From positions 164,573 through 196,572 of the forward strand of contig NZ_FUWK01000001.1 of NCBI RefSeq assembly GCF_900167395.1: a DNA stretch of 32,000 nt, written 5' to 3'. Shown here one piece after another: positions 7,608-32,000 of this stretch. The notes below the pieces were generated by a model, which saw nothing but the letters and a program-made list of their open reading frames with translations, did not search any database and was not told the origin of the DNA. The DNA comes from Nitrosomonas europaea. Lineage in GTDB: Bacteria; Pseudomonadota; Gammaproteobacteria; Burkholderiales; Nitrosomonadaceae. The position numbers were made by a program, and so were the translations under genes. How positions within the stretch are numbered: the stretch's first letter is position 1; the number at the start of each line of letters is the position of its first letter.

Positions 7608-7896
7608 TGGGGAAGCCGGCCGATAAGCCGGGTTCTGTCGTGGACAGTCATTCCTCTAGGCATACAGTTACCCGTGTGCTCGAGCGATCTACCCGCAGAC
7701 TCAGCGAGCAGCGTCATCATCTGCCTATTTGATCTTGCTCCGGATGGAGGTTACCGCGTTTCACCGTAACTTAATACGCTCGTCTCTGTGGCCCTGTTCC
7801 TCACCTCACGGCGGCCGGCCGTTAACCGGCATCCTGCTCTGTGGAGCCCGGACTTTCCTCTCCCTGTCACCAGGCAGCGACTGTCTGACCGGCTTC
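7608..7896 (-). ncRNA. rnpB: RNase P RNA (bacterial type A), compact ~289 nt
   Basis: The reverse complement reads GAAGCCGGTCAGACAGTCGC...GGGAGAGGAAAGTCCGGGCTCCACAG...CCGGAGCAAG.TCAAATAGG...GAATGACTGTCCACGACAGAACCCGGCTTATCGGCCGGCTTC, near-identical in the universally conserved blocks to E. coli M1 RNA. The 5' and 3' ends pair as P1. Confidence 0.9.
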
Positions 7897-23288: not shown

Positions 23289-23648
23289 GGGGGCGATCCG
23301 GTTTCGACGTGGGTTGCAAAGCAGCGCAGGGCATACCGAGGTTCAGTACCCTCGTAAAACAGCTGAAAAAAAATAGTCGCAAACGACGAAAACTACGCTT
23401 TAGCCGCTTAATCCGGCTAAACTCCACACCGGTGGGCCTCAACGCCGGGTCTGGCAACAGACAGTGGAGTCATTAACGAGGATCGCGTTTTGCAGGGTTA
23501 CTTTGCAGAGCGCTAAAAAATAGGTAACTCGCCTGTCATCAGCCTGCCGGTTGGCGGATGCCAGGTCAAATTAAATAACATGGCTAAGTATGTAGAACTG
23601 TCTGTAGAGGACTTGCGGACGCGGGTTCAATTCCCGCCGCCTCCACCA
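23289..23648 (+). ncRNA. ssrA: tmRNA (SsrA)
   Basis: 5' GGGGGCGATCCGGTTTCGACG, internal tag frame, and 3' tRNA-like end GGACGCGGGTTCAATTCCCGCCGCCTCCACCA. Collinear with E. coli ssrA. Confidence 0.95.
23379..23411 (+). other. tmRNA proteolysis-tag reading frame ANDENYALAA-stop
   Basis: GCA AAC GAC GAA AAC TAC GCT TTA GCC GCT TAA, preceded by the conserved AAAAAATAGTC resume region. Confidence 0.9.
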
Positions 23649-23657
23649 ATAACAAAA

Positions 23658-23685
23658 CCCCAACCATTCTCGGTTGGGGTTTTTT
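23658..23685 (+). terminator. Rho-independent terminator of ssrA
   Basis: CCCCAACC-attctc-GGTTGGGG followed by TTTTTT. Confidence 0.85.
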
Positions 23686-23981
23686 CTTGCCTGATCGCAC
23701 CGGTTCCCGCGTGTTCTTGCGGGTTCCTGCGGAAGCCTGCGGACTGCACCGGTCAGCCTCTCAGCCCGTTCCGGACCACATTCCACTCTCTCCTGGCCAT
23801 TCCTCGCTCCGACCTCGCTCCCTGAAACCGGCCCGAAGTCCGCAAAGACCGCAAGTCAGCCCCATACAAATCAGAGAGTTACGCGCGGACGAATCAAGCC
23901 GTTGGATTGCAGCATCGGGTGGCGGAGGAAACAAGTTCGCGCAGACGACCCGTCTGCATCAACGCTTACAGCAGTGTCTTT

Positions 23982-24007
23982 CCTTGTGAACCTACCGCTT
24001 CACAAGG
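23982..24007 (+). promoter_or_regulatory. 9-bp perfect inverted repeat (possible operator or RNA hairpin) 50 nt upstream of the first cassette gene
   Basis: CCTTGTGAA-cctaccgc-TTCACAAGG, followed by three GTCAA(C/T) copies at 24009, 24028 and 24040 and the GGAG RBS at 24047. Confidence 0.3.
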
Positions 24008-24056
24008 TGTCAACTATACTGTAAAGTGTCAATCCCGCCGTCAACTGGAGAGTGCC

Positions 24057-24860
24057 ATGGGCCAAAAAATGAAGAACGCACCGGTGTACTTCACCATTGC
24101 CCAAGTCCGGCACAACCCCGTCCTTCGGCTCGGCTCCTACGCACCCGACATCCAGGATCGTATGCGGAAAGCGGGCTACCCCGACTTCAAGAAAGGGATC
24201 GCCATGGCATTTACGCTTGCGCCACAACTGGGAGACGCCCCACAAACACAGCCCCCGGTCGTTGAACAAGTCGAGCGACTGATGTTTTTTAGCACTGACA
24301 GCACCAGGGGGTTCATCGTCGAACAGAATGCCCTATCGTTTCACACGACAGAGTATGAAACGTTTGAAGCGCTTGCTGACGAATTCATGCGAGGGTTGGC
24401 CATCGTTCACGAATGCGTCACGTTGGCCCACTCCGAGCGGATTGGTCTACGGTACCTCGACGCAGTCGTTCCTCCTGGTGGTGAGACAGGGCTCGCTGAG
24501 TACTTGGCGCCTGGCGTGCTCGGGCTGAGCAGCCGTTTGCCGGAAGATGTCACGGTCTCTCACTCGTTTTCCGAAACACATATCCAAACAGCCAAGTGCG
24601 CCGTTCTCGCACGAACGATCATCCAATCTGGGCCGCTAGGATTTCCAATGGATCTTCAACCCATTGGAGTGAAGGTTGCCGATCGATTCCGCGAGATCAA
24701 TGGCGTTCATGCCATCGTTGATACCGATGCTTCAATCGAAGGCCGGCACCCTTTCAATCTGGAACTCATAAAATCTCAGCTGCAAGTGTTGCGTGATGGT
24801 GTCGGCATTGCATTTGACGCAACTGTTACGCCGATCGCGGTCTCAGCGTGGAATAGCTAA
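24057..24860 (+). CDS. TIGR04255-family protein (uncharacterised)
   Basis: Start at the ATG with GGAG 6 nt upstream. N-terminal NAPVYFTIAQVRHNP and the central ERIGLRYLDAV resemble the family hallmarks (aPLvEvifEirF ... RiGLRYiN). Recalled from memory, not searched. Confidence 0.65.
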   Translation: MGQKMKNAPVYFTIAQVRHNPVLRLGSYAPDIQDRMRKAGYPDFKKGIAMAFTLAPQLGDAPQTQPPVVEQVERLMFFSTDSTRGFIVEQNALSFHTTEYETFEALADEFMRGLAIVHECVTLAHSERIGLRYLDAVVPPGGETGLAEYLAPGVLGLSSRLPEDVTVSHSFSETHIQTAKCAVLARTIIQSGPLGFPMDLQPIGVKVADRFREINGVHAIVDTDASIEGRHPFNLELIKSQLQVLRDGVGIAFDATVTPIAVSAWNS

Positions 24861-24879
24861 AAACGCAAAGGAGATAAAC

Positions 24880-25548
24880 ATGTACGCAGCCTATCAGACC
24901 AATGGTCCAGCAAGACCCATAGCCCGAACTGCCGCATTTACGAAAGAAGATGATCTTCTTGTGGACATGGCGCGGCAGAATAATCTTCGAGGGCGCATCT
25001 TGACCTATTGCGTAGCTGGTACGTTTGGATTGCTGTCGCCGAACTATTTGCACGCTAGCGCGGCTACTGCAAATTGGGACATCAACCAGATCGAGATCAG
25101 CGGACTGAGCGAGAGCTCGGTAGGCGCCATCAGCGAATCTGCTCGAGACATCGCACACATTCGTGCGGTCACGAAGATCTCAGTTTCCGAGCTTTCCAGG
25201 GTATTTGGCGTATCGCGACAAGCAGTACATGAGTGGATTAAGGGAGGCACTCTTTCGCAGCGAAACGCACAACGTCTTTCAGAGCTGGCACGAGCGACTG
25301 ACGTATTCATTGAAGCTGAGATCGAGGCATCCCCTCAAGTTTTCCGCAGAAAGATTGCTGGTGGCCAGTCCATTTTGGACGCCGTCAGAGAAAACGGAAA
25401 TGCCGTGGAGTTGGCAAAAACGCTCGCCGCCACTCTGGTCAGGGAATCCCAGCAACGCCAGCGCCTCGCTGCACGTCTAGCGGGAAGATCTGCGACTCCC
25501 GGTACTTCCACAGAATTTGGTTCTCCTCACCTTGATGAAGATGCGTGA
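24880..25548 (+). CDS. Xre-like HTH protein with DUF2384-like C-terminal region (MbcA/ParS/Xre antitoxin-type architecture), unusual ~95-aa N-terminal extension
   Basis: AAGGAG RBS 7 nt upstream of ATG 24880. HTH is ISVSELSRVFGVSRQAVHEWIKGGTLSQRNAQRLSEL, followed by FRRKIAGGQSILDAVRENGNAVELAKTL, which resembles the toxin-binding DUF2384 motif. Confidence 0.55.
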   Translation: MYAAYQTNGPARPIARTAAFTKEDDLLVDMARQNNLRGRILTYCVAGTFGLLSPNYLHASAATANWDINQIEISGLSESSVGAISESARDIAHIRAVTKISVSELSRVFGVSRQAVHEWIKGGTLSQRNAQRLSELARATDVFIEAEIEASPQVFRRKIAGGQSILDAVRENGNAVELAKTLAATLVRESQQRQRLAARLAGRSATPGTSTEFGSPHLDEDA

Positions 25549-25559
25549 GGGGCCAGTGC

Positions 25560-26411
25560 ATGGCAGACAATGATCGGCAGTTTTCATGGCGCCAAGGCAA
25601 TGTCGTAACTCTTGAAGCAGCGAAGGCGCTCAATCTGCTGGCTCCCGAATGTGATGATCAGCACTTCGCTGTGGTCGCTTCCCACGACTGCGACCTATCA
25701 GCATCGCAGGACAAAGAACCATGCGTTGAGGTCGTGGTCGGCAAACGCATTGACAAGCTTGGCGGAGATTCATTCGGCAAAACTGCCAGGCGCCTGCACA
25801 TCGAATATCAGTCAGAGGCCGGACCCGTAGCAATCGAACTATTGGCAACGAGTAAGCGGCCAGTAGCAAAGCATGAACTATTTTCCACTCACCCCCGCCA
25901 AGACATATGGCTTGATGGCCAGGGTATCGGAATACTTCAGCGGTGGCTCGCGTCTCGTTATCACCGCGCCGCGTTTCCAGAAGCTTTTGAGGACCGCCTG
26001 CGTAGTGCCAACCTACCAGGAAAACGAACCTTTCTTAAACGCATAGAGGGCATCCTGGCAGACGGTGGCGATCACATACGCGCACTGCTTTTCGATCTTG
26101 ATGAAGGTAAAGACGTTGAGCGCGATGGGCCGGATGACGTCTATCAGCTTGGGATTGTCGTGCTCTATGACAGCCTTCGAGACGAGCCTGCTGCTGCACA
26201 AGTCGCAGGCAAGGCAGCTGAAGCGCTGGAAGAGCTTTTCGAGGCAGCCTTTCACCCCAAGGACTCAGGATGGAAAAACATCTGCCTCATGTATTGCGAC
26301 CCAATTTCGGACAGTGCCATTACCGTCGCTCAACGTGAGATGCTGAAGCAATGGCGCCTGGAGCATATGAGCCTTCAAGAAGACCCTCCACAACCAATGA
26401 TCACACCTTGA
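25560..26411 (+). CDS. Hypothetical 283-aa protein, no recognisable domain (candidate effector/toxin)
   Basis: Long ORF with island-typical GC3 bias. ATG 25560 is preceded by GAGGGG; an alternative GTG at 25545 overlaps the upstream stop. Notable motif FAVVASHDCDL...EPCVEVVVGKRIDK. Confidence 0.6.
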   Translation: MADNDRQFSWRQGNVVTLEAAKALNLLAPECDDQHFAVVASHDCDLSASQDKEPCVEVVVGKRIDKLGGDSFGKTARRLHIEYQSEAGPVAIELLATSKRPVAKHELFSTHPRQDIWLDGQGIGILQRWLASRYHRAAFPEAFEDRLRSANLPGKRTFLKRIEGILADGGDHIRALLFDLDEGKDVERDGPDDVYQLGIVVLYDSLRDEPAAAQVAGKAAEALEELFEAAFHPKDSGWKNICLMYCDPISDSAITVAQREMLKQWRLEHMSLQEDPPQPMITP

Positions 26412-26432
26412 TCCAACTGAACGGAGCGACTC

Positions 26433-26900
26433 CTAAGCGTCCTGCATGAGACGGGAAGTGCTAAACGAAGTGTCCCAGACTTTTCTCCGCTGCTCATCCC
26501 ACAACGCGGGCGGGTCCACCGCCAGGTCAAACAGCGTGACGTGGTTCGGCAATGCGTCGTCCAGGATGGCCGCCACGATGTCGGGCGCCAGCGTGGTCAG
26601 GTTGACCATCCGGCTGACGTAGCTGTTGTCGATTCCTTCCCGCGTGGCGATCTCCTTCAAGGACTTCGCCTCTCCTGATTCGAGCATCGCCAGCCAGCGG
26701 TGACCCCTAGCCAGCGCCAGTTGGATGGAGGTCGGTGCCACGTCCCACGGCCTGACCGGCGCAGTTTCGCCGTTTGGCAAGGTGACCAGTTTGCGGCCGC
26801 TGCGGCGTTTGATCTGGATCGGCACTGACAGGGTCAGCCTGCCGTCGCTGGTCTGCAGGATGTCCGGCTCACCGGTCTTCTGGATTCGGATGTCGCTCAT
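26433..26900 (-). CDS. ParB/KorB-like HTH DNA-binding protein, last gene of recombinase operon
   Basis: SLKEIATREGIDNSYVSRMVNLTTLAPDIVAAILD resembles the ParB-type HTH plus following helix. ATGA-type overlap with the recombinase stop. Confidence 0.55.
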   Translation of the reverse strand: MSDIRIQKTGEPDILQTSDGRLTLSVPIQIKRRSGRKLVTLPNGETAPVRPWDVAPTSIQLALARGHRWLAMLESGEAKSLKEIATREGIDNSYVSRMVNLTTLAPDIVAAILDDALPNHVTLFDLAVDPPALWDEQRRKVWDTSFSTSRLMQDA

Positions 26901-28252
26901 GCCCGTGCTACCTCCTGTTGCTCGACCGGTTCGGGGCGCAGCTCCAGCACCAGACGCTCAATGCCGTTGGCGCGCAGCCGCACTTCGAGGTCATTGGGCG
27001 ACACGATGACTTTCTCCACCAGCAACTTCACGATCCGGGTCTGCTCGGCCGGGAACAGTTGATCCCAAATCGCGTCGAGCCGGGTCATGGCCACGGTGAT
27101 CTTCGCCTCGTCCAAAGTAGGATCGAGCTTGATCGCCTGCGGCAACATCTCACCCAGGAGATTCGGGGCACGCAGGATTGCGCGCAGTTGATCGAGCACC
27201 GCCGACTCGAGTTCTGCGGCCGGCAATCGCGGCAACCCCGAGGCACCCGCGTGTTCCTTGGCGTCGCGCTGGGGCACGTAGTAACGGTAGCGCCGGCCAT
27301 TCTTCTTGGTGGTGTGCCACGGCGACAGTGCGCGGCCGTCGTTGCCGAACACGATGCCCTTGAGCAGATAGGGAACCTTGGCCCGCGTCGTGTTGCCCCG
27401 CACTCGACCATTCGTCTCCAGGATCGCATGGACGCTGTCCCACAGTTCGCGGTTGATGATGGGCGGGTGCTCGGCCTGGTACCACTGGTCCTTGTGACGC
27501 AACTCGCCAAGGTAAGTCCGGTTACTGAGGAGCTTGTAGATGTGGCCCTTGTCGATCAGCCTGCCATCGCGAGTCTTGCCGTCTTGTGTGGTCCACGCCT
27601 TCGACGTCACGCCATCCAGTTTCAGCTCCTTGACCAGTGCGGTGCTGGAACCGAGCTCGACGAAACGCTGGAAGATGTGCCGGATCAGTTTGGCCTCGCG
27701 CTCGTTGGGCACCAACCGCCGGTTCTCGACGTCGTAGCCCAGCGGCGGCACGCCACCCATCCACATACCCTTGCGCTTGCTGGCCGAGATCTTGTCGCGG
27801 ATACGTTCGCCGGTGACTTCGCGCTCGAACTGCGCGAAGGACAGCAGGATGTTCAACATCAACCTGCCCATCGAGGTCGTCGTGTTGAACTGCTGGGTGA
27901 CCGACACGAACGACACAGCGTAGCGCTCGAACACTTCGACCATCTTGGAGAAGTCGGCCAGGCTGCGTGTCAGGCGGTCGATCTTGTAGATGACGACCAC
28001 GTCGATCTTGCCGGCTTCGATGTCCGCCATCATGCGCTGGAGCGCCGGGCGTTCCATGTTGCCGCCGGAAAAGGCGGGATCGTCGTAATCGTCGGCGACC
28101 GGAATCCAGCCTTCGGCGCGCTGGCTGGCGATGTAGGCATGACCGGCATCGCGCTGCGCGTCGATCGAGTTGTACTCCTGGTCCAGCCCTTCATCGGTGG
28201 ATTTGCGCGTGTAGACCGCACAGCGCATGCGGCGCTTCAAGACTTCGCTCAT
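26897..28252 (-). CDS. Large serine recombinase (resolvase/invertase catalytic domain plus recombinase domain)
   Basis: CAVYTRKSTDEG...SIDAQ (catalytic Ser), DVVVIYKIDRLTRSL, GRLMLNILLSFAQFEREVTGERIRDK, GGVPPLGYD, then a recombinase/coiled-coil C-terminus. 451 aa. Confidence 0.9.
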   Translation of the reverse strand: MSEVLKRRMRCAVYTRKSTDEGLDQEYNSIDAQRDAGHAYIASQRAEGWIPVADDYDDPAFSGGNMERPALQRMMADIEAGKIDVVVIYKIDRLTRSLADFSKMVEVFERYAVSFVSVTQQFNTTTSMGRLMLNILLSFAQFEREVTGERIRDKISASKRKGMWMGGVPPLGYDVENRRLVPNEREAKLIRHIFQRFVELGSSTALVKELKLDGVTSKAWTTQDGKTRDGRLIDKGHIYKLLSNRTYLGELRHKDQWYQAEHPPIINRELWDSVHAILETNGRVRGNTTRAKVPYLLKGIVFGNDGRALSPWHTTKKNGRRYRYYVPQRDAKEHAGASGLPRLPAAELESAVLDQLRAILRAPNLLGEMLPQAIKLDPTLDEAKITVAMTRLDAIWDQLFPAEQTRIVKLLVEKVIVSPNDLEVRLRANGIERLVLELRPEPVEQQEVARA

Positions 28253-28755
28253 CGCCCACCTCTCTTCTTGGGGGACGGCTTGGCCTTGGCGTTGGACGGC
28301 GGCTTGAGCCCGAAGAACAGCGGACCCGACCAGCGCATGCCGGTGATTTCGCGGGCGATCATCGAGAGGCTCGGGTATATGCGTCCCTGGAAGTCATACT
28401 GGCCGTCGGCGGTCGCGATCACGCGGTACTCGACGCCTTTGTATTCCCGAACCAGTACCGTGCCTGCGGCCGGACGGTAATCGCGGTCGCGTTTTTTCAC
28501 CTTGCCGGTTTCGACCAGTGATTCGATTCGACGCTGGTTGCGATCCAGCAGGTTGGCGTCGGCCTTGCGGAATTCCAGCTCCTGCAGCCGGTAGGCAATC
28601 CGGCGCTCGAGGAACTGGCGGTTGTGGGTGGGCGTGTCGCCACCGACCAGCTTCTGCCAGAGTGCCCGGATTTCTGCCATCGGCATCTCGGGAAGCCTCG
28701 CGATCTGCGCCGCCACCGATGGCGGCGTGGAAAATGATGGTGTTTGCGTGCTCAT
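28249..28755 (-). CDS. DUF2924-domain protein (recombinase-associated)
   Basis: EIRALWQKLVGGDTPTHNRQFLERRIAYRLQELEF...GTVLVREYKGVEYRV...FQGRIYPSLSMIAREITGMRWSGPLFFGL matches my recollection of DUF2924. 4-nt overlaps on both sides. Confidence 0.7.
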   Translation of the reverse strand: MSTQTPSFSTPPSVAAQIARLPEMPMAEIRALWQKLVGGDTPTHNRQFLERRIAYRLQELEFRKADANLLDRNQRRIESLVETGKVKKRDRDYRPAAGTVLVREYKGVEYRVIATADGQYDFQGRIYPSLSMIAREITGMRWSGPLFFGLKPPSNAKAKPSPKKRGGR

Positions 28756-28970
28756 TTCGACTCCGTAGTTGTCTTGTTGACGGGGTCTGTATGAACGCGC
28801 TGGTTGCCAGAGAAGCCAAGCTCAAACCCGCTCGCTTCTGGCTTGTTTGCGGACTCTTCTGCGCCGGTGATACGCAAGCGTGCCAGGCCGTTGGCCAGCA
28901 ACGACGCGATCTCGTGGCGACGCTGTTCCGGCGTCATCCGCTCCGGTGGTAGATGGTTGATTTGATGCAT
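28752..28970 (-). CDS. Small hypothetical protein (72 aa), first gene of recombinase operon
   Basis: ATG with GAGAGGA upstream. Stop overlaps the DUF2924 start (ATGA). No recognisable domain. Confidence 0.5.
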   Translation of the reverse strand: MHQINHLPPERMTPEQRRHEIASLLANGLARLRITGAEESANKPEASGFELGFSGNQRVHTDPVNKTTTESK

Positions 28971-29095
28971 CGGTGGCGGTCCTCTCGGTCAAACTCACAT
29001 GCAGTGAAATTGTCCGGATGGACTGCCGCCGACACCATGAGGGAGTTTCGGAGCCGTGCGAACCGATGCGGGTTGCTGCGAAAAGCAGGTCCCTT

Positions 29096-30310
29096 TTAGT
29101 TCGCCAGATGACGGGCGAGGATGGTCTTCATCAACGAATTGCCGGGCTGGGTGCTGGCGATCATGTCCCGGATCTGCTCGTTGACCTGCTGGGTTGGCAC
29201 AACAGCGTTCACCGCCGCCTGCGTGACTGCCGAATAAGCATCGAGCACATCAGTGCCGGTAATTTCATAGCCGTGTCCAAGAGAGATCCAGCGCAACGCG
29301 GCCAAGCCGGCTGCGAGCGCGAATGCTGGCTGCTTCTCGGCATAGTCACGGGCAGCGCGTGTCAGCGTGCGCGGATCGGTCGGGCTGCGCGTGGCCAGTT
29401 CGATCGCCACATCAAACAGGCCCGCATCCTTCGCAGCGGCGAACCATTTGCCCTCGGCGCCAGGCGTGCTGGCTACCAGGTCGCGTAGGATCTCTTCCGG
29501 CTGCTTGTGGGGATACTTCTTGGCGATGGCGCGAAACGTCGCCAGGTTCGTCGTGCCCTGATTTGCCTCGATGGCATAGCGGCGGTAGGCCTCGTCGAGA
29601 AAACCGGAGGACAACAGGATCTCTTCGCAGGCCTGGGCAATCTGCCAGCCAGGATCATTGAGACCGCGCGACTCCTCGGCGTAGCGGATCGCCTCCGCCT
29701 TCTTGCCCATCGCTGCCAATGCCTTCACGCCCCAGCGCCGGTCGTGCCACCATTTGAAGGGTGCCTTATCGAGCAGCGCCCACAGCTCCTGATGGCGACC
29801 TGCAGCGTACATCGATGCCAGGCAAGCGCTGGTGCCTTTGAAGAATCCGTGTCCGGAAGCCTTCGGGCTCCACACGCTCTCGACGACCGGCAAAAACTCA
29901 TCGGCCCAGTGCGACGCCAGTTCCGGCGTCACGCACAACTCGCCCCAGTAATCGCCGAGCACTTCGATGTAGGGCATTTCGTCGTCCTGCAGCGCTTGCC
30001 ACAAGCGTTCGAGCCAGCGTTGTCGCAGCTTCGGCTCGACGTCAGCCTTGACGATGATGGGCACCAGGGTATCGATGGCCTTGTTGACGGCCGACCCCAG
30101 TGCGCCCGATGAACTGTCCACCTGCTCCAGCGCTGGGGAGAGCTTTTCCAGCAGGGTGATGGCTCCTTCAGCCGCGAGTACAGGCTCCTTGCGGGCGACC
30201 TGCTTGATCTCCGTGATGGCTTCCTTGATCCGCTGCACCGGCGTATCGGAGCGCCAGCCAAACGCATGACGGCGGAAACGGGAAGCGAATTGCCACTTGT
30301 GGGCGCTCAT
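29096..30310 (-). CDS. Hypothetical 404-aa all-alpha (repeat-like), Trp-rich protein
   Basis: Long ORF with strong GC3 bias. GGTGGA RBS 6 nt upstream of the ATG. 17 nt downstream of the ImmA-like gene. Helix-forming composition throughout and no catalytic motif recognised. Confidence 0.65.
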   Translation of the reverse strand: MSAHKWQFASRFRRHAFGWRSDTPVQRIKEAITEIKQVARKEPVLAAEGAITLLEKLSPALEQVDSSSGALGSAVNKAIDTLVPIIVKADVEPKLRQRWLERLWQALQDDEMPYIEVLGDYWGELCVTPELASHWADEFLPVVESVWSPKASGHGFFKGTSACLASMYAAGRHQELWALLDKAPFKWWHDRRWGVKALAAMGKKAEAIRYAEESRGLNDPGWQIAQACEEILLSSGFLDEAYRRYAIEANQGTTNLATFRAIAKKYPHKQPEEILRDLVASTPGAEGKWFAAAKDAGLFDVAIELATRSPTDPRTLTRAARDYAEKQPAFALAAGLAALRWISLGHGYEITGTDVLDAYSAVTQAAVNAVVPTQQVNEQIRDMIASTQPGNSLMKTILARHLAN

Positions 30311-30327
30311 GATCGATCCACCATGAG

Positions 30328-31239
30328 CTACCGCACCGGGTACTGGCCGTTGCGGATGAAGCGGTCGTAGGTGTCTTCCTCCGGTTCCTCATCATCGTGC
30401 CGCGCTCCCTGCCACTCGGCCTCAGGCAGCAATAGCAGTGTCAGCGTGTAGTCGTACTGACCCGCGACGCGCGTCATCTCCGTGACCGGCATGCTGGCAG
30501 GTTCACGGGCAAACCAGGACTGAGCGCGCCCCGTCCGGTTGTCGCACATGTCAAAGGCGTTGTAGCTGTGCGCCAGCGCATCGTGCGGAAGCTCGATGGT
30601 GTTCTTGCGCGTCGCGAAGTAGGCGCCGGACTTGAGGGCCGCCTTGTTCGACTTGGCCCACAGCATGTGATCGTCGCGGCTGGCCACCAGTATCGCGCGC
30701 TTGGGTGCGATCTCAGTCCAACGCAGGGCGGCAGCCGTCAGCGATACCCCATAGCGGTCGGCGCAGTGGCCGAGCAGATCGAAGCTGATCGGCTGTCCAT
30801 CCACTTGGCGCCGGAAGTCGTCCAGCGGCATCAGCAGGGTTGAGGCGAACAGATCCGCCTCGGCCTCGATGTCGCGCTCGTTGTTGTCACCCGTCTCGAT
30901 GTCGTCGCCGCCGCACTCGAAGAGGTCCTGCTGGTGGCGGTGCAGTATGTAGTGGCCGAACTCATGCGCAATCGTGAAGCGCTTTCGGCCTTCCGACGGG
31001 GTGGCGCTGTTGTAGAGGATCAGCCACTTCGAGCGCGCCTTGTTGGCCTTCAGCAGACCATCGAAACCTTCCAGATCCTCGCCCCGAACCGTGTCGATCG
31101 GCGAGTCCGAAAAGCACTGGCGGGAATACTCCAGCGCCAGCTCGTCAACCTTGACCGGAAAGCGATCCGCACCGAGAACCGTGTTGAGCATGGACGAGAT
31201 GCGGTTGGCCTCGGCCATGGGCTTTTTCGCGTCCGTCAT
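30328..31239 (-). CDS. ImmA/IrrE-family (COG2856, DUF955) zinc metallopeptidase with ~150-aa C-terminal extension
   Basis: HEXXH motif in FTIAHEFGHYILHRH plus the downstream EAEADLFASTLLMP motif. ATGA overlap with the upstream XRE gene. Confidence 0.85.
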   Translation of the reverse strand: MTDAKKPMAEANRISSMLNTVLGADRFPVKVDELALEYSRQCFSDSPIDTVRGEDLEGFDGLLKANKARSKWLILYNSATPSEGRKRFTIAHEFGHYILHRHQQDLFECGGDDIETGDNNERDIEAEADLFASTLLMPLDDFRRQVDGQPISFDLLGHCADRYGVSLTAAALRWTEIAPKRAILVASRDDHMLWAKSNKAALKSGAYFATRKNTIELPHDALAHSYNAFDMCDNRTGRAQSWFAREPASMPVTEMTRVAGQYDYTLTLLLLPEAEWQGARHDDEEPEEDTYDRFIRNGQYPVR

Positions 31240-31640
31240 TCATCTTCCCAGGCATCGAGGATCTTGCGGATCTTCTTCTTGTCGGGCTCGGACATGTTTT
31301 TGTACTTACGGAAGAAGGCCTCGTCGAGCACTTCCTCGTCCGGGGTGGTTGCCGACTCGGTCAGCAGGAACTCCGTGGTGACCTCGAGGACGGTAGCGAT
31401 CTTGCCGATCTTCTCGGCCGATGGTTTCGGGTCGTCTTTGTTTTCCAGTTCCCAGATGTAGCTCTTGCTGGAGTCGGTCAGTTCGGCCAACTGTTCCAGA
31501 CTGAGCTTCTTTTGCTTCCGCAATGCGCGGATCTTGTCCCCCAGGGGCGATGGCACCGGTCTCTCCTCATGTGTTGGCGTCAGGCCGAAAATAATACCAC
31601 TACGCCGAACGGATTCGTACCTGCTTGACAAACTCCGCAT
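31236..31640 (-). CDS. XRE-family HTH transcriptional regulator (ImmR-like); true start may be GTG at 31556
   Basis: LGDKIRALRKQKKLSLEQLAELTDSSKSYIWELENK is a classic Cro/C1 HTH. GAGGAG lies 6 nt upstream of the in-frame GTG at 31556. The annotated ATG at 31640 lies in the lower-GC junction next to the IS. Confidence 0.8.
   Translation of the reverse strand: MRSLSSRYESVRRSGIIFGLTPTHEERPVPSPLGDKIRALRKQKKLSLEQLAELTDSSKSYIWELENKDDPKPSAEKIGKIATVLEVTTEFLLTESATTPDEEVLDEAFFRKYKNMSEPDKKKIRKILDAWEDE
31591..31599 (-). promoter_or_regulatory. Candidate extended -10 promoter element for the XRE-ImmA operon
   Basis: The minus strand reads TGGTATTAT (TGnTATAAT-like) ~35 nt upstream of the GTG at 31556. 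The -35 is weak. Confidence 0.3.
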
Positions 31641-31645
31641 TACTC

Positions 31646-32000
31646 CTAGATGTTTAGTCCCACTTTGTGATGGTATGGATTGATGATAAAACGTTCAGGT
31701 TCGTTTTGCCAGCATTTGATGATGTATTCGTAAGGTGTGAGTCCTCGTAAGGTTTTGAGTCGCCTGGCGAAGTTGTAGGCATTCAGGAAGCTGTAAAGAT
31801 GCTCTCGCAACTGTTGATGATTTTCATAATGATAGCGTTTGACGGTTGCTTCCTTGAGGGTGCGGTTCATGCGTTCGACTTGACCATTGGTCCAGGGGTG
31901 ATTTGGCTGGGTCAGGCGATGTTCCGTACCATTTTCCAGGCAGACACGGTCGAAGATATGCAAGAAAGCATGCCTGTCTGTTTTGCGGTGGGTGAACTGG
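31646..32000 (-). CDS. IS481-family (rve/DDE) transposase, C-terminal part; continues beyond the window
   Basis: ...ENGTEHRLTQPNHPWTNGQVERMNRTLKEATVKRYHY...LREHLYSFLNAYNFARRLKTLRGLTPYEYI is the conserved integrase-core C-terminus of IS481-type transposases. The frame is open to base 32000. GC drops back to a backbone-like level. Confidence 0.8.
   Translation of the reverse strand, partial: QFTHRKTDRHAFLHIFDRVCLENGTEHRLTQPNHPWTNGQVERMNRTLKEATVKRYHYENHQQLREHLYSFLNAYNFARRLKTLRGLTPYEYIIKCWQNEPERFIINPYHHKVGLNI

Follow-up and report, generated by a model that had tools for sequence, protein, structure and literature searches.

A mobile three-gene operon in an ssrA-linked island of Nitrosomonas europaea as a candidate autorepressed anti-phage defence module

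In a stretch of 32,000 nucleotides from Nitrosomonas europaea (contig NZ_FUWK01000001.1, positions 164,573 to 196,572; here called the window), three tightly packed genes at 24057-26411 on the plus strand raise the question whether they form one functional system and, if so, of which kind. A preliminary description had taken them for an orphan cassette acting as a new toxin-antitoxin (TA) or abortive-infection system with a novel effector. Comparison with homologous loci showed that the three genes belong together in a single accessory operon, self-contained and carried from one mobile genetic element to another. For its function, an autorepressed anti-phage defence module of the abortive-infection or TA type is the favoured prediction, to which an about even chance is given.

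The first gene, g1 (24057-24860, plus strand), encodes a TIGR04255-family protein of 267 aa and is preceded by a Shine-Dalgarno sequence, GGAGAG, at 24047-24052. It is followed by g2 (24880-25548, plus strand), encoding an Xre-type helix-turn-helix (HTH) regulator of 222 aa, and by g3 (25560-26411, plus strand), encoding a member of an uncharacterised family that is 283 aa long when counted from the ATG. Direct reading of the DNA together with the list of open reading frames (ORFs) confirmed the tight packing reported before: g1 and g2 are separated by 19 nt carrying the Shine-Dalgarno sequence AAGGAG (24868-24873), and g2 and g3 by 11 nt with GAGGGG at 25547-25552, the first two bases of which are part of the g2 stop codon. 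g3 also has an alternative GTG start at 25545, which shares GTGA with the g2 stop. Alignments with g3 homologues begin at the ATG (M-A-D...), and therefore the real g3 product is taken to have 283 aa; those of g1 and g2 likewise begin at the ATG codons given here. All three genes are intact, coupled and on the same strand, and g3 ends 21 bp from the stop codon of the convergent ORF 26433-26900 of a recombinase operon, as had been noted.

Whether this neighbourhood is conserved had been left to be checked, and both the order and the spacing of the trio were found to be the same in every locus examined, in several phyla. In a sample of 61 genome loci taken from one-genome-per-species contigs, g1, g2 and g3 followed each other in this order in 57 of the 57 loci with all three genes, down to ∼32% identity. 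A search of viral contigs (IMG/VR) with g1 gave 48 loci, and hidden Markov models (HMMs) identified g2 and g3 as the next genes in all 44 that had downstream DNA. The trio is also annotated, as 'TIGR04255 / HTH or hypothetical / hypothetical', on five plasmids, from Klebsiella pneumoniae, Pseudomonas putida, Acinetobacter baumannii, Gloeocapsa PCC 7428 and Meiothermus taiwanensis. Together, the loci with the trio cover Pseudomonadota, Acidobacteriota, Cyanobacteriota and Deinococcota, and a g1 homologue named Methylacidiphilaceae adds Verrucomicrobiota for g1 only, which brings the number to at least five phyla. No fourth conserved gene was identified by clustering of all flanking ORFs or by a Pfam census. 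The distribution is sporadic: the E. coli homologue (∼31% identity in g1) was present in 18 of 5426 complete genomes. Megablast searches gave no match of the cassette DNA to plasmids and none of the E. coli-type trio to phage records. In six distant loci (L032, L051, L053, L057, L058 and L060), the match to g3 or g1 was only partial, or an insertion lay between that gene and g2; such loci may hold decayed copies. The term orphan had to be given up: g3 alone has 658 homologues in a word-indexed search, nearly all of 281-285 aa, and 1915 clusters at 50% identity in a profile search, nearly all of 260-290 aa, the trio is conserved across phyla, and the E. coli homologue has already been catalogued (see below).

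The region upstream of g1 contains a sigma-70-like promoter, TTCACA-17 nt-TAAAGT, at 23999-24027 on the plus strand, which is the sole promoter-like site in 23600-26950. It is overlaid by four phased direct repeats of TGT(C/A)AA on the same strand (24008-24044, spacing 12/7/12). Repeat R1 (24008-24013) lies in the promoter spacer, R2 (24020-24025) over the -10 element, and R3 (24027-24032) and R4 (24039-24044, CGTCAA in this copy) over the expected start site and the 5' untranslated region (UTR). The 9-bp perfect inverted repeat and the GTCAA repeats mentioned in the preliminary description were both recovered, the GTCAA units as parts of this phased array. Read from the sequence, the inverted repeat is CCTTGTGAA-N8-TTCACAAGG (23982-23990 / 23999-24007); its left arm holds TGTGAAC (23985-23991), a variant of the repeat unit, its right arm holds the -35 hexamer, and the palindrome is kept in close relatives only.

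The direct repeats, on the other hand, are private to this promoter and deeply conserved. Across loci, TGT(C/A)AA occurred on average in 3.07 copies per 90 nt upstream of g1 on the coding strand, versus 0.03 in the locus background and 0.04 on the opposite strand, which is a ∼100-fold enrichment, and the spacing of 12/7/12 was fixed. The fetched loci, 1.79 Mb in all (124 loci, ∼10 kb around, both strands), contain the pair TGTMAA-N5-7-TGTMAA 130 times, and each of these copies lies no more than 130 nt upstream of g1. An alignment of 81 unique upstream segments gave the consensus gaa-N8-T....aa.gTGTCAAccaaagTGTAAACTG..aa......tgtcAA, in short form TGTCAAccaaagTGTAAACTG. In these segments the -10-like TAAACT/TAAAGT inside repeat 2 and a weak -35 element (T....a) were conserved, and 31 of them retained a GAAC remnant 20 nt ahead of repeat 1. 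The core, TGTCAAC-N5-TGTAAACT, persists at 30-45% protein identity in E. coli-type prophages, Klebsiella, Pseudomonas and Meiothermus and is degenerate in the Gloeocapsa and Acinetobacter copies.

The candidate protein to read this array is g2, which had been described as an Xre-type HTH protein with a DUF2384-like segment and an extra N-terminal region of ∼95 aa. The HTH assignment could be maintained: HTH_3 of Pfam scored 21.8 bits in this copy, below the cut-off of 23, but PF01381 is recorded in many of 134 g2 homologues, and a transcriptional regulator of PHROG was matched with E 6e-5. The DUF2384 assignment could not. PF09722 gave no match to g2 at E<=1 and is recorded in none of the 120 listed homologues, and the matches to NF049845 (16.3 bits versus a cut-off of 90, profile positions 4-59) and to MbcA (6fkg_C, E 0.23, MbcA residues 24-67) cover the HTH only. 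The N-terminal extra region does exist, and was found to consist of a conserved hydrophobic segment plus a variable linker, giving an overall layout of variable N-terminus, hydrophobic segment (aa 40-58, ILTYCVAGTFGLLSPNYLH, 24997-25053), variable linker, HTH (aa ∼90-135, 25147-25284), helical C-terminal region and a conserved tail, FGxPHLxED. The hydropathy (KD19) of the segment is weak in this g2, 0.90 versus 1.3-2.0 in most homologues, and for the E. coli homologue Phobius gave '1 TM', one transmembrane (TM) segment, in protein 2 (PMC9122126 Table S5B). In most homologues the N-terminal extension thus probably carries a conserved, membrane-anchoring hydrophobic segment; no hydrophobic segment was found in g1 or g3. 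Most g2 homologues also have a G-T-G motif after the N-terminal hydrophobic stretch. An HTH regulator with its DNA-binding domain C-terminal to a single membrane anchor is unusual.

Among the three proteins g2 evolves fastest and g1 slowest. The mean identities of g1/g3/g2 were 82/76/67% in the closest, 48/46/39% in the middle and 37/37/32% in the most distant band, where ∼114 g2 residues, the HTH core, could still be aligned. Only two residues of g2, R113 and W119, are invariant across phyla, and both are located in the recognition helix of the HTH. In TA-like modules the regulator or antitoxin is usually the fastest-evolving component.

The invariance of R113 and W119 matches the invariance of the DNA motif, and together with the confinement of the motif to this promoter it argues for autorepression of the operon by g2. 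The TGT(C/A)AA array is therefore read as the predicted operator of the cassette, and g2 as its putative autorepressor. With regard to the transcriptional autoregulation that is typical of type II TA systems, what was observed is a conserved repeat array that overlaps the promoter and is confined to it; g2 is the protein that would bind it. The absence of the motif elsewhere near the cassette argues against a role of g2 in regulating the element that carries it.

The g3 protein had been regarded as neither RES nor ParT toxin and as not placeable, and this was borne out by profile and structure searches, which linked it to no known housekeeping, toxin or defence family. No match was found in Pfam, NCBIfam or PADLOC (E<=1), profile searches of the PDB gave nothing, and PHROG gave only family 34320, of unknown function. 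In a Pfam census of 127 diverse representatives (27-53% identity) no family was matched by more than two members, and neither this census nor Pfam and NCBIfam searches of g3 itself identified a RES or ParT toxin. The AlphaFold2 (AF2) model (pLDDT 78, pTM 0.53) consists of a beta-rich N-terminal domain, a conserved Arg-rich helical hairpin (ILQRWLAxRYxRAAFPExFExRLR) and a beta-beta-alpha-beta C-terminal domain, and Foldseek found no match to it in the PDB or BFVD at E<=0.001. Weak Foldseek matches of g3 or g1 to NTase/MNT, the MamM C-terminal domain (MamM-CTD), PemK-like proteins and TATA-binding protein (TBP), with TM 0.2-0.35, were treated as noise or leads. One such lead from BFVD, a MazF/PemK fold, was rejected after hhalign with MazF, Kid and EndoA sequences gave a probability of 0.15%, and a HEPN Rx4-6H motif was rejected as its His is not conserved in the alignment. 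The family nevertheless has a strongly conserved set of residues. Q12, C44, D45, W129 and R136 are invariant in the 127 representatives, and W10, G13, H42, D43, E53, E57, R77, L79, L130, R133, Y134, F139, F143, L197, W265 and S271 are conserved in at least 90% of them. With its H-D-C-D motif, encoded at 25683-25694, the conserved cluster looks like an active or metal-binding site, though one that could not be assigned to any known class.

That g1 belongs to TIGR04255 was corroborated over its full length. Residues 4-266 match positions 1-252 of the 252 positions of the NCBIfam HMM with 162.9 bits (E 1.2e-47; the curated cut-off is 30 bits), and homologues of g1 carry the name TIGR04255 at JGI and NCBI. 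The AF2 model (pLDDT 87, pTM 0.84) contains two beta-alpha-beta4-alpha halves. Foldseek gave no match in the PDB at E<=0.001, the top match being TBP (1tbp_A) with a probability of 0.89, TM 0.26-0.35 and an rmsd of 11 Å, which is weak. The predicted order of secondary structure elements would fit two TBP-like halves, while the superposition is poor at this TM. An internal duplication is not visible in the sequence, as the comparison of N-half and C-half profiles gave a probability of 0.4%. Q33, R37, Y100, G130, R132, D135, D222 and D224 are invariant across phyla, within motifs such as RxGLRYLDA and HAIxDTD. No match was obtained in Pfam, PADLOC (E<=1) or profile searches of the PDB. In the literature searched, no paper mentions TIGR04255 or any of eleven RefSeq accessions; the name 'TIGR04255 family protein' occurs twice in a ranked, scored product-name table of DefensePredictor (PMC13092281 Table S3), where it may reflect the contribution of a neighbour to defence prediction, and nothing is drawn from it.

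The carriers of the trio are mobile elements of unrelated kinds, and several of them hold defence genes. The E. coli homologue (locus L124, NZ_CP027462, 1006820-1009258) is located in a P2-like prophage, between the replication endonuclease gene gpA, with a DinI-like gene, and the portal gene. The gpA-gpQ (old/tin) locus of P2 is a hotspot for anti-phage systems (Rousset et al., 2022; PMC9122126 section 10). The L124 proteins were located in row 59 of Table S5B of that study, where they are system #59, with Pfam 'HTH_31', 69 occurrences and one TM segment in protein 2; HMMs of the window families detected all three genes in P2-like prophage loci. System #59 was catalogued only: Table S2, which gives the systems that were cloned and tested, does not contain its sequences (PMC9122126). 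Elsewhere the trio adjoins DISARM-like genes, serine recombinases and RelB/ParE in Ralstonia, a RES toxin inside a Tn7-like element in P. putida, SLATT in Gloeocapsa, and an integrase, PIN/HTH genes and a methyltransferase with DUF262 in Meiothermus. McrBC, TacAT, DndB and transposases were found as further neighbours.

In the window, the cassette is cargo of an island at ssrA, as had been proposed. The tmRNA gene ssrA was located at 23289-23648 (plus strand) by ARAGORN and Rfam. Homology with islands of Lysobacter, Burkholderiales, Steroidobacteraceae and other metagenome-assembled genomes (MAGs) sets in within the 3'-terminal part of ssrA, at 23580-23640, and in five loci (L001, L002, L004, L006 and L030) a tmRNA gene is directly upstream of the trio. 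These sequence comparisons identify the 3' end of ssrA (∼23580-23648) as the point where an ssrA-targeting island has its left attachment site, with the cassette as the first cargo behind it. This ssrA-specific island of ∼8 kb or more was found in at least six genera (loci L001-L006, L009 and L030). Directly after ssrA, inside the stretch shared between islands, a palindromic hairpin with a 13-bp stem (AAAACCCCAACC...GGTTGGGGTTTT, 23654-23683) is probably the tmRNA terminator.

Downstream of the cassette follows the convergent operon at 26433-28755 (minus strand), which according to Pfam encodes a 155-aa unknown protein (ORF 26433-26900), a large serine recombinase (451 aa) and DUF2924. It is the probable integration module of the island, outside the cassette, and also follows the trio in L003, L005, L009 and L063. 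Further along on the minus strand are a 404-aa ORF without Pfam or PADLOC match (29096-30310), CapP (30328-31239, PADLOC E 4.6e-73, Peptidase_M78) and CapH (31236-31640, PADLOC E 6.4e-32). CapH/CapP pairs control CBASS and other defence operons, and by analogy the 404-aa gene may be a second uncharacterised defence effector in the island. The 404-aa gene, CapP and CapH also follow the trio in L003 and L005, and L009 retains the 404-aa gene. Homology with Pokkaliibacter and Ectothiorhodospira covers the recombinase operon, the 404-aa gene and CapP/CapH and extends to 31633, where the homology to other islands stops beside an rve_3 integrase fragment (31646-31963); no direct repeat marking the right end of the island was found in the window. 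The earlier label of a high-GC island needs to be restricted: the trio has a GC content of 54.1%, versus 52.1% for the host and 61-63% for the remaining island. This contrast between the trio and the recombinase operon with the CapH/CapP region (26433-31640) points to a mosaic origin of the island. The window further contains an RNase P RNA of bacterial class A (Rfam RF00010, 243.9 bits) at 7608-7896 on the minus strand, an ordinary housekeeping gene.

What, then, does the operon do? The coupling of the genes, the strict conservation of the trio, a cis-element confined to its own promoter, the mobile-element and defence contexts, the CapH/CapP pair in the same island, the P2 hotspot and the fast evolution of g2 together argue for a defence function. 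We infer from these observations that g2 not only binds the repeats but also neutralises a partner, that toxicity or enzymatic activity resides in g3 or g1, and that the operon acts against phages. In the proposed mechanism g2, an Xre-type HTH protein that in most homologues would be tethered to the membrane by its hydrophobic N-terminal segment, would bind the phased TGT(C/A)AA repeats in the spacer, the -10 element, the transcription start and the 5' UTR and keep expression of the operon low and self-limited. Probably it would also keep one or both partner proteins inactive. g3, with its invariant H-D-C-D / E / E / R cluster and Arg-rich helical hairpin, and g1, as a two-lobed alpha+beta protein with an invariant R/D/D-x-D surface, could together provide the sensing and effector activities; they would be set free upon infection or once g2 is lost or degraded. 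A TA or abortive-infection type system, as proposed in the preliminary description, is thus still the most plausible class; the argument from DUF2384 in its favour fails, and either g1 or g3 could be the effector. A more daring version, for which the chances are considered low, is that membrane-tethered g2 links an envelope event, such as injection of a phage genome or a perturbation of the membrane, to de-repression of the operon and release of a TBP-like TIGR04255 protein and an H-D-C-D / E / E enzyme, and that the trio would be an unrecognised multi-phylum anti-phage system. In that case TIGR04255 would obtain its first function and a new effector fold would be defined.

Several points speak against the defence function and its regulation by g2. 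Palindromes are the usual binding sites of Xre-type dimers, whereas the repeats here are direct, and repeat 2 may in part be conserved just as the -10 element. In this copy g2 has a weak hydrophobic segment, and the Gloeocapsa and Meiothermus homologues lack it altogether. g1 and g3 have no significant likeness to a known toxin, nuclease, protease or NTase, the Foldseek matches staying at TM ∼0.2-0.35, and no model of PADLOC-DB v2.0.0, which includes the Rousset, Millman, Gao and Vassallo systems and PDC candidates, matches g1 or g3 of the window, E. coli or Klebsiella copies. Furthermore, the P2 hotspot also carries cargo unrelated to defence, e.g., partition systems and the CDT toxin (PMC9122126 section 10).

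The same compact, autoregulated operon on islands, plasmids and prophages would also be expected of a tripartite TA (addiction) module that stabilises its mobile element instead of defending against phages. In that case g2 would act both as repressor and as labile antitoxin, the toxin would be g3 or g1, and the remaining protein would serve as chaperone or adaptor, in the manner of the toxin-antitoxin-chaperone (TAC) or HipBST systems. The fast evolution of g2, its tail FGxPHLxED, which could be a docking or degron peptide, and the other TA pairs that often adjoin the cassette are consistent with this. However, apart from the generic HTH the proteins show no similarity to known families of toxins or antitoxins, the order and sizes are odd for a type II TA system (the first gene encodes 267 aa, and the middle one a 222-aa regulator that has a membrane segment), and the placement as cargo in the P2 old/tin hotspot and in Tn7-like elements suits defence better. 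Addiction in place of defence is therefore considered unlikely, with the reservation that TA and abortive-infection functions are not mutually exclusive.

Somewhat less credit still is given to an accessory function outside defence, for example a membrane-linked g2 that senses a signal and acts with two enzymes or ligand-binding proteins to alter host physiology or support the life cycle of the element. The functions of all three proteins are unassigned, the conserved polar surface of g1 could bind a ligand, g2 is probably in the membrane, and the mixed cargo of the P2 hotspot would accommodate such a module. It is difficult to reconcile with an operator that, in 124 loci and ∼10 kb around, is confined to the cassette promoter, with carriers as unrelated as serine-recombinase islands, P2-like prophages, Tn7-like transposons and megaplasmids, alongside which no metabolic or transport gene is conserved, and with the sporadic distribution in complete E. 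coli genomes. Finally, that g2 is an MbcA/ParS-type Xre-DUF2384 antitoxin neutralising g3, in place of a RES or ParT toxin, through a DUF2384-like C-terminal domain is very improbable: a helical region does follow the HTH, and the HTH weakly matches Xre_ParS_antitoxin (E 0.008) and MbcA, but these matches are confined to the HTH and fall far under the family thresholds (16 versus 90 bits), PF09722 is found in 0 of the 120 listed homologues, g2 is twice as long as MbcA/ParS and has a hydrophobic N-terminal segment absent there, and the conserved g1 is without counterpart in Xre-RES or ParST.

If the trio is indeed an anti-phage defence or abortive-infection module, a widespread system would be added, present in at least five phyla and including copies in E. 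coli, Klebsiella, Pseudomonas and Acinetobacter. TIGR04255 would obtain a function, one type of uncharacterised cargo of the P2 hotspot would be explained, and two non-regulatory proteins without relatives in Pfam, PADLOC and the PDB would be placed. The combination of a deeply conserved putative operator, TGTCAAC-N5-TGTAAAC, and a probably membrane-anchored HTH protein would be an unusual regulatory design. New here is the prediction of an HTH-regulated cassette of the defence or TA type of which all components are uncharacterised; one distant member was already known from a catalogue.

With Xre-RES, MbcTA and ParST the cassette shares an Xre-type HTH gene that directly precedes a larger partner and is translationally coupled to it, a likely autoregulation and the location on mobile elements. 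It differs from them by the lack of a DUF2384 signal in g2 and of a RES or ParT signal in g3, by a third conserved gene, and by a g2 of about double the length of MbcA/ParS with a hydrophobic N-terminal segment that those lack. Tripartite TA systems such as TAC and HipBST likewise consist of three co-transcribed genes including an HTH regulator or antitoxin. The conserved C-terminal tail of g2 could act like the chaperone-addiction segment of TAC antitoxins; the likeness is organisational only, and no resemblance of the cassette proteins in sequence or fold to SecB-like chaperones, HigB/HigA or HipS/HipT is known.

Among defence systems, Rosmer (RmrA), CapH/CapP and MADS (mad1) resemble the cassette in having an HTH protein in or beside a defence operon. 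The weak PADLOC matches of g2 to mad1 (window copy, E 6e-4) and to RmrA (E. coli homologue, E 6e-4) cover ∼25-60 residues of generic HTH only, and g2 is without an M78 peptidase domain; the CapH/CapP pair elsewhere in the same island is distinct from the cassette. Rst_3HP (Rousset et al., 2022; pFR109), validated against phage P1, consists of three hypothetical proteins and is found in the same P2 hotspot. Identity with it was rejected after comparison by eye, as its proteins have ∼336, 350 and 225 aa and other sequences (Table S2A), and PADLOC gave no match of the cassette proteins to any Rousset system. The counterpart of the cassette in that study is system #59. It is a distant orthologue, found in E. 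coli P2-like prophages and not in an ssrA island and with two upstream repeats and not four. Like the cassette it encodes a TIGR04255-type protein 1, an HTH protein 2 with one predicted TM segment and a protein 3 with WRQG...ITHDCDL, at ∼31-38% identity to the window proteins, and it is preceded by the same upstream element, TGTCAAC-N5-TGTAAAC.

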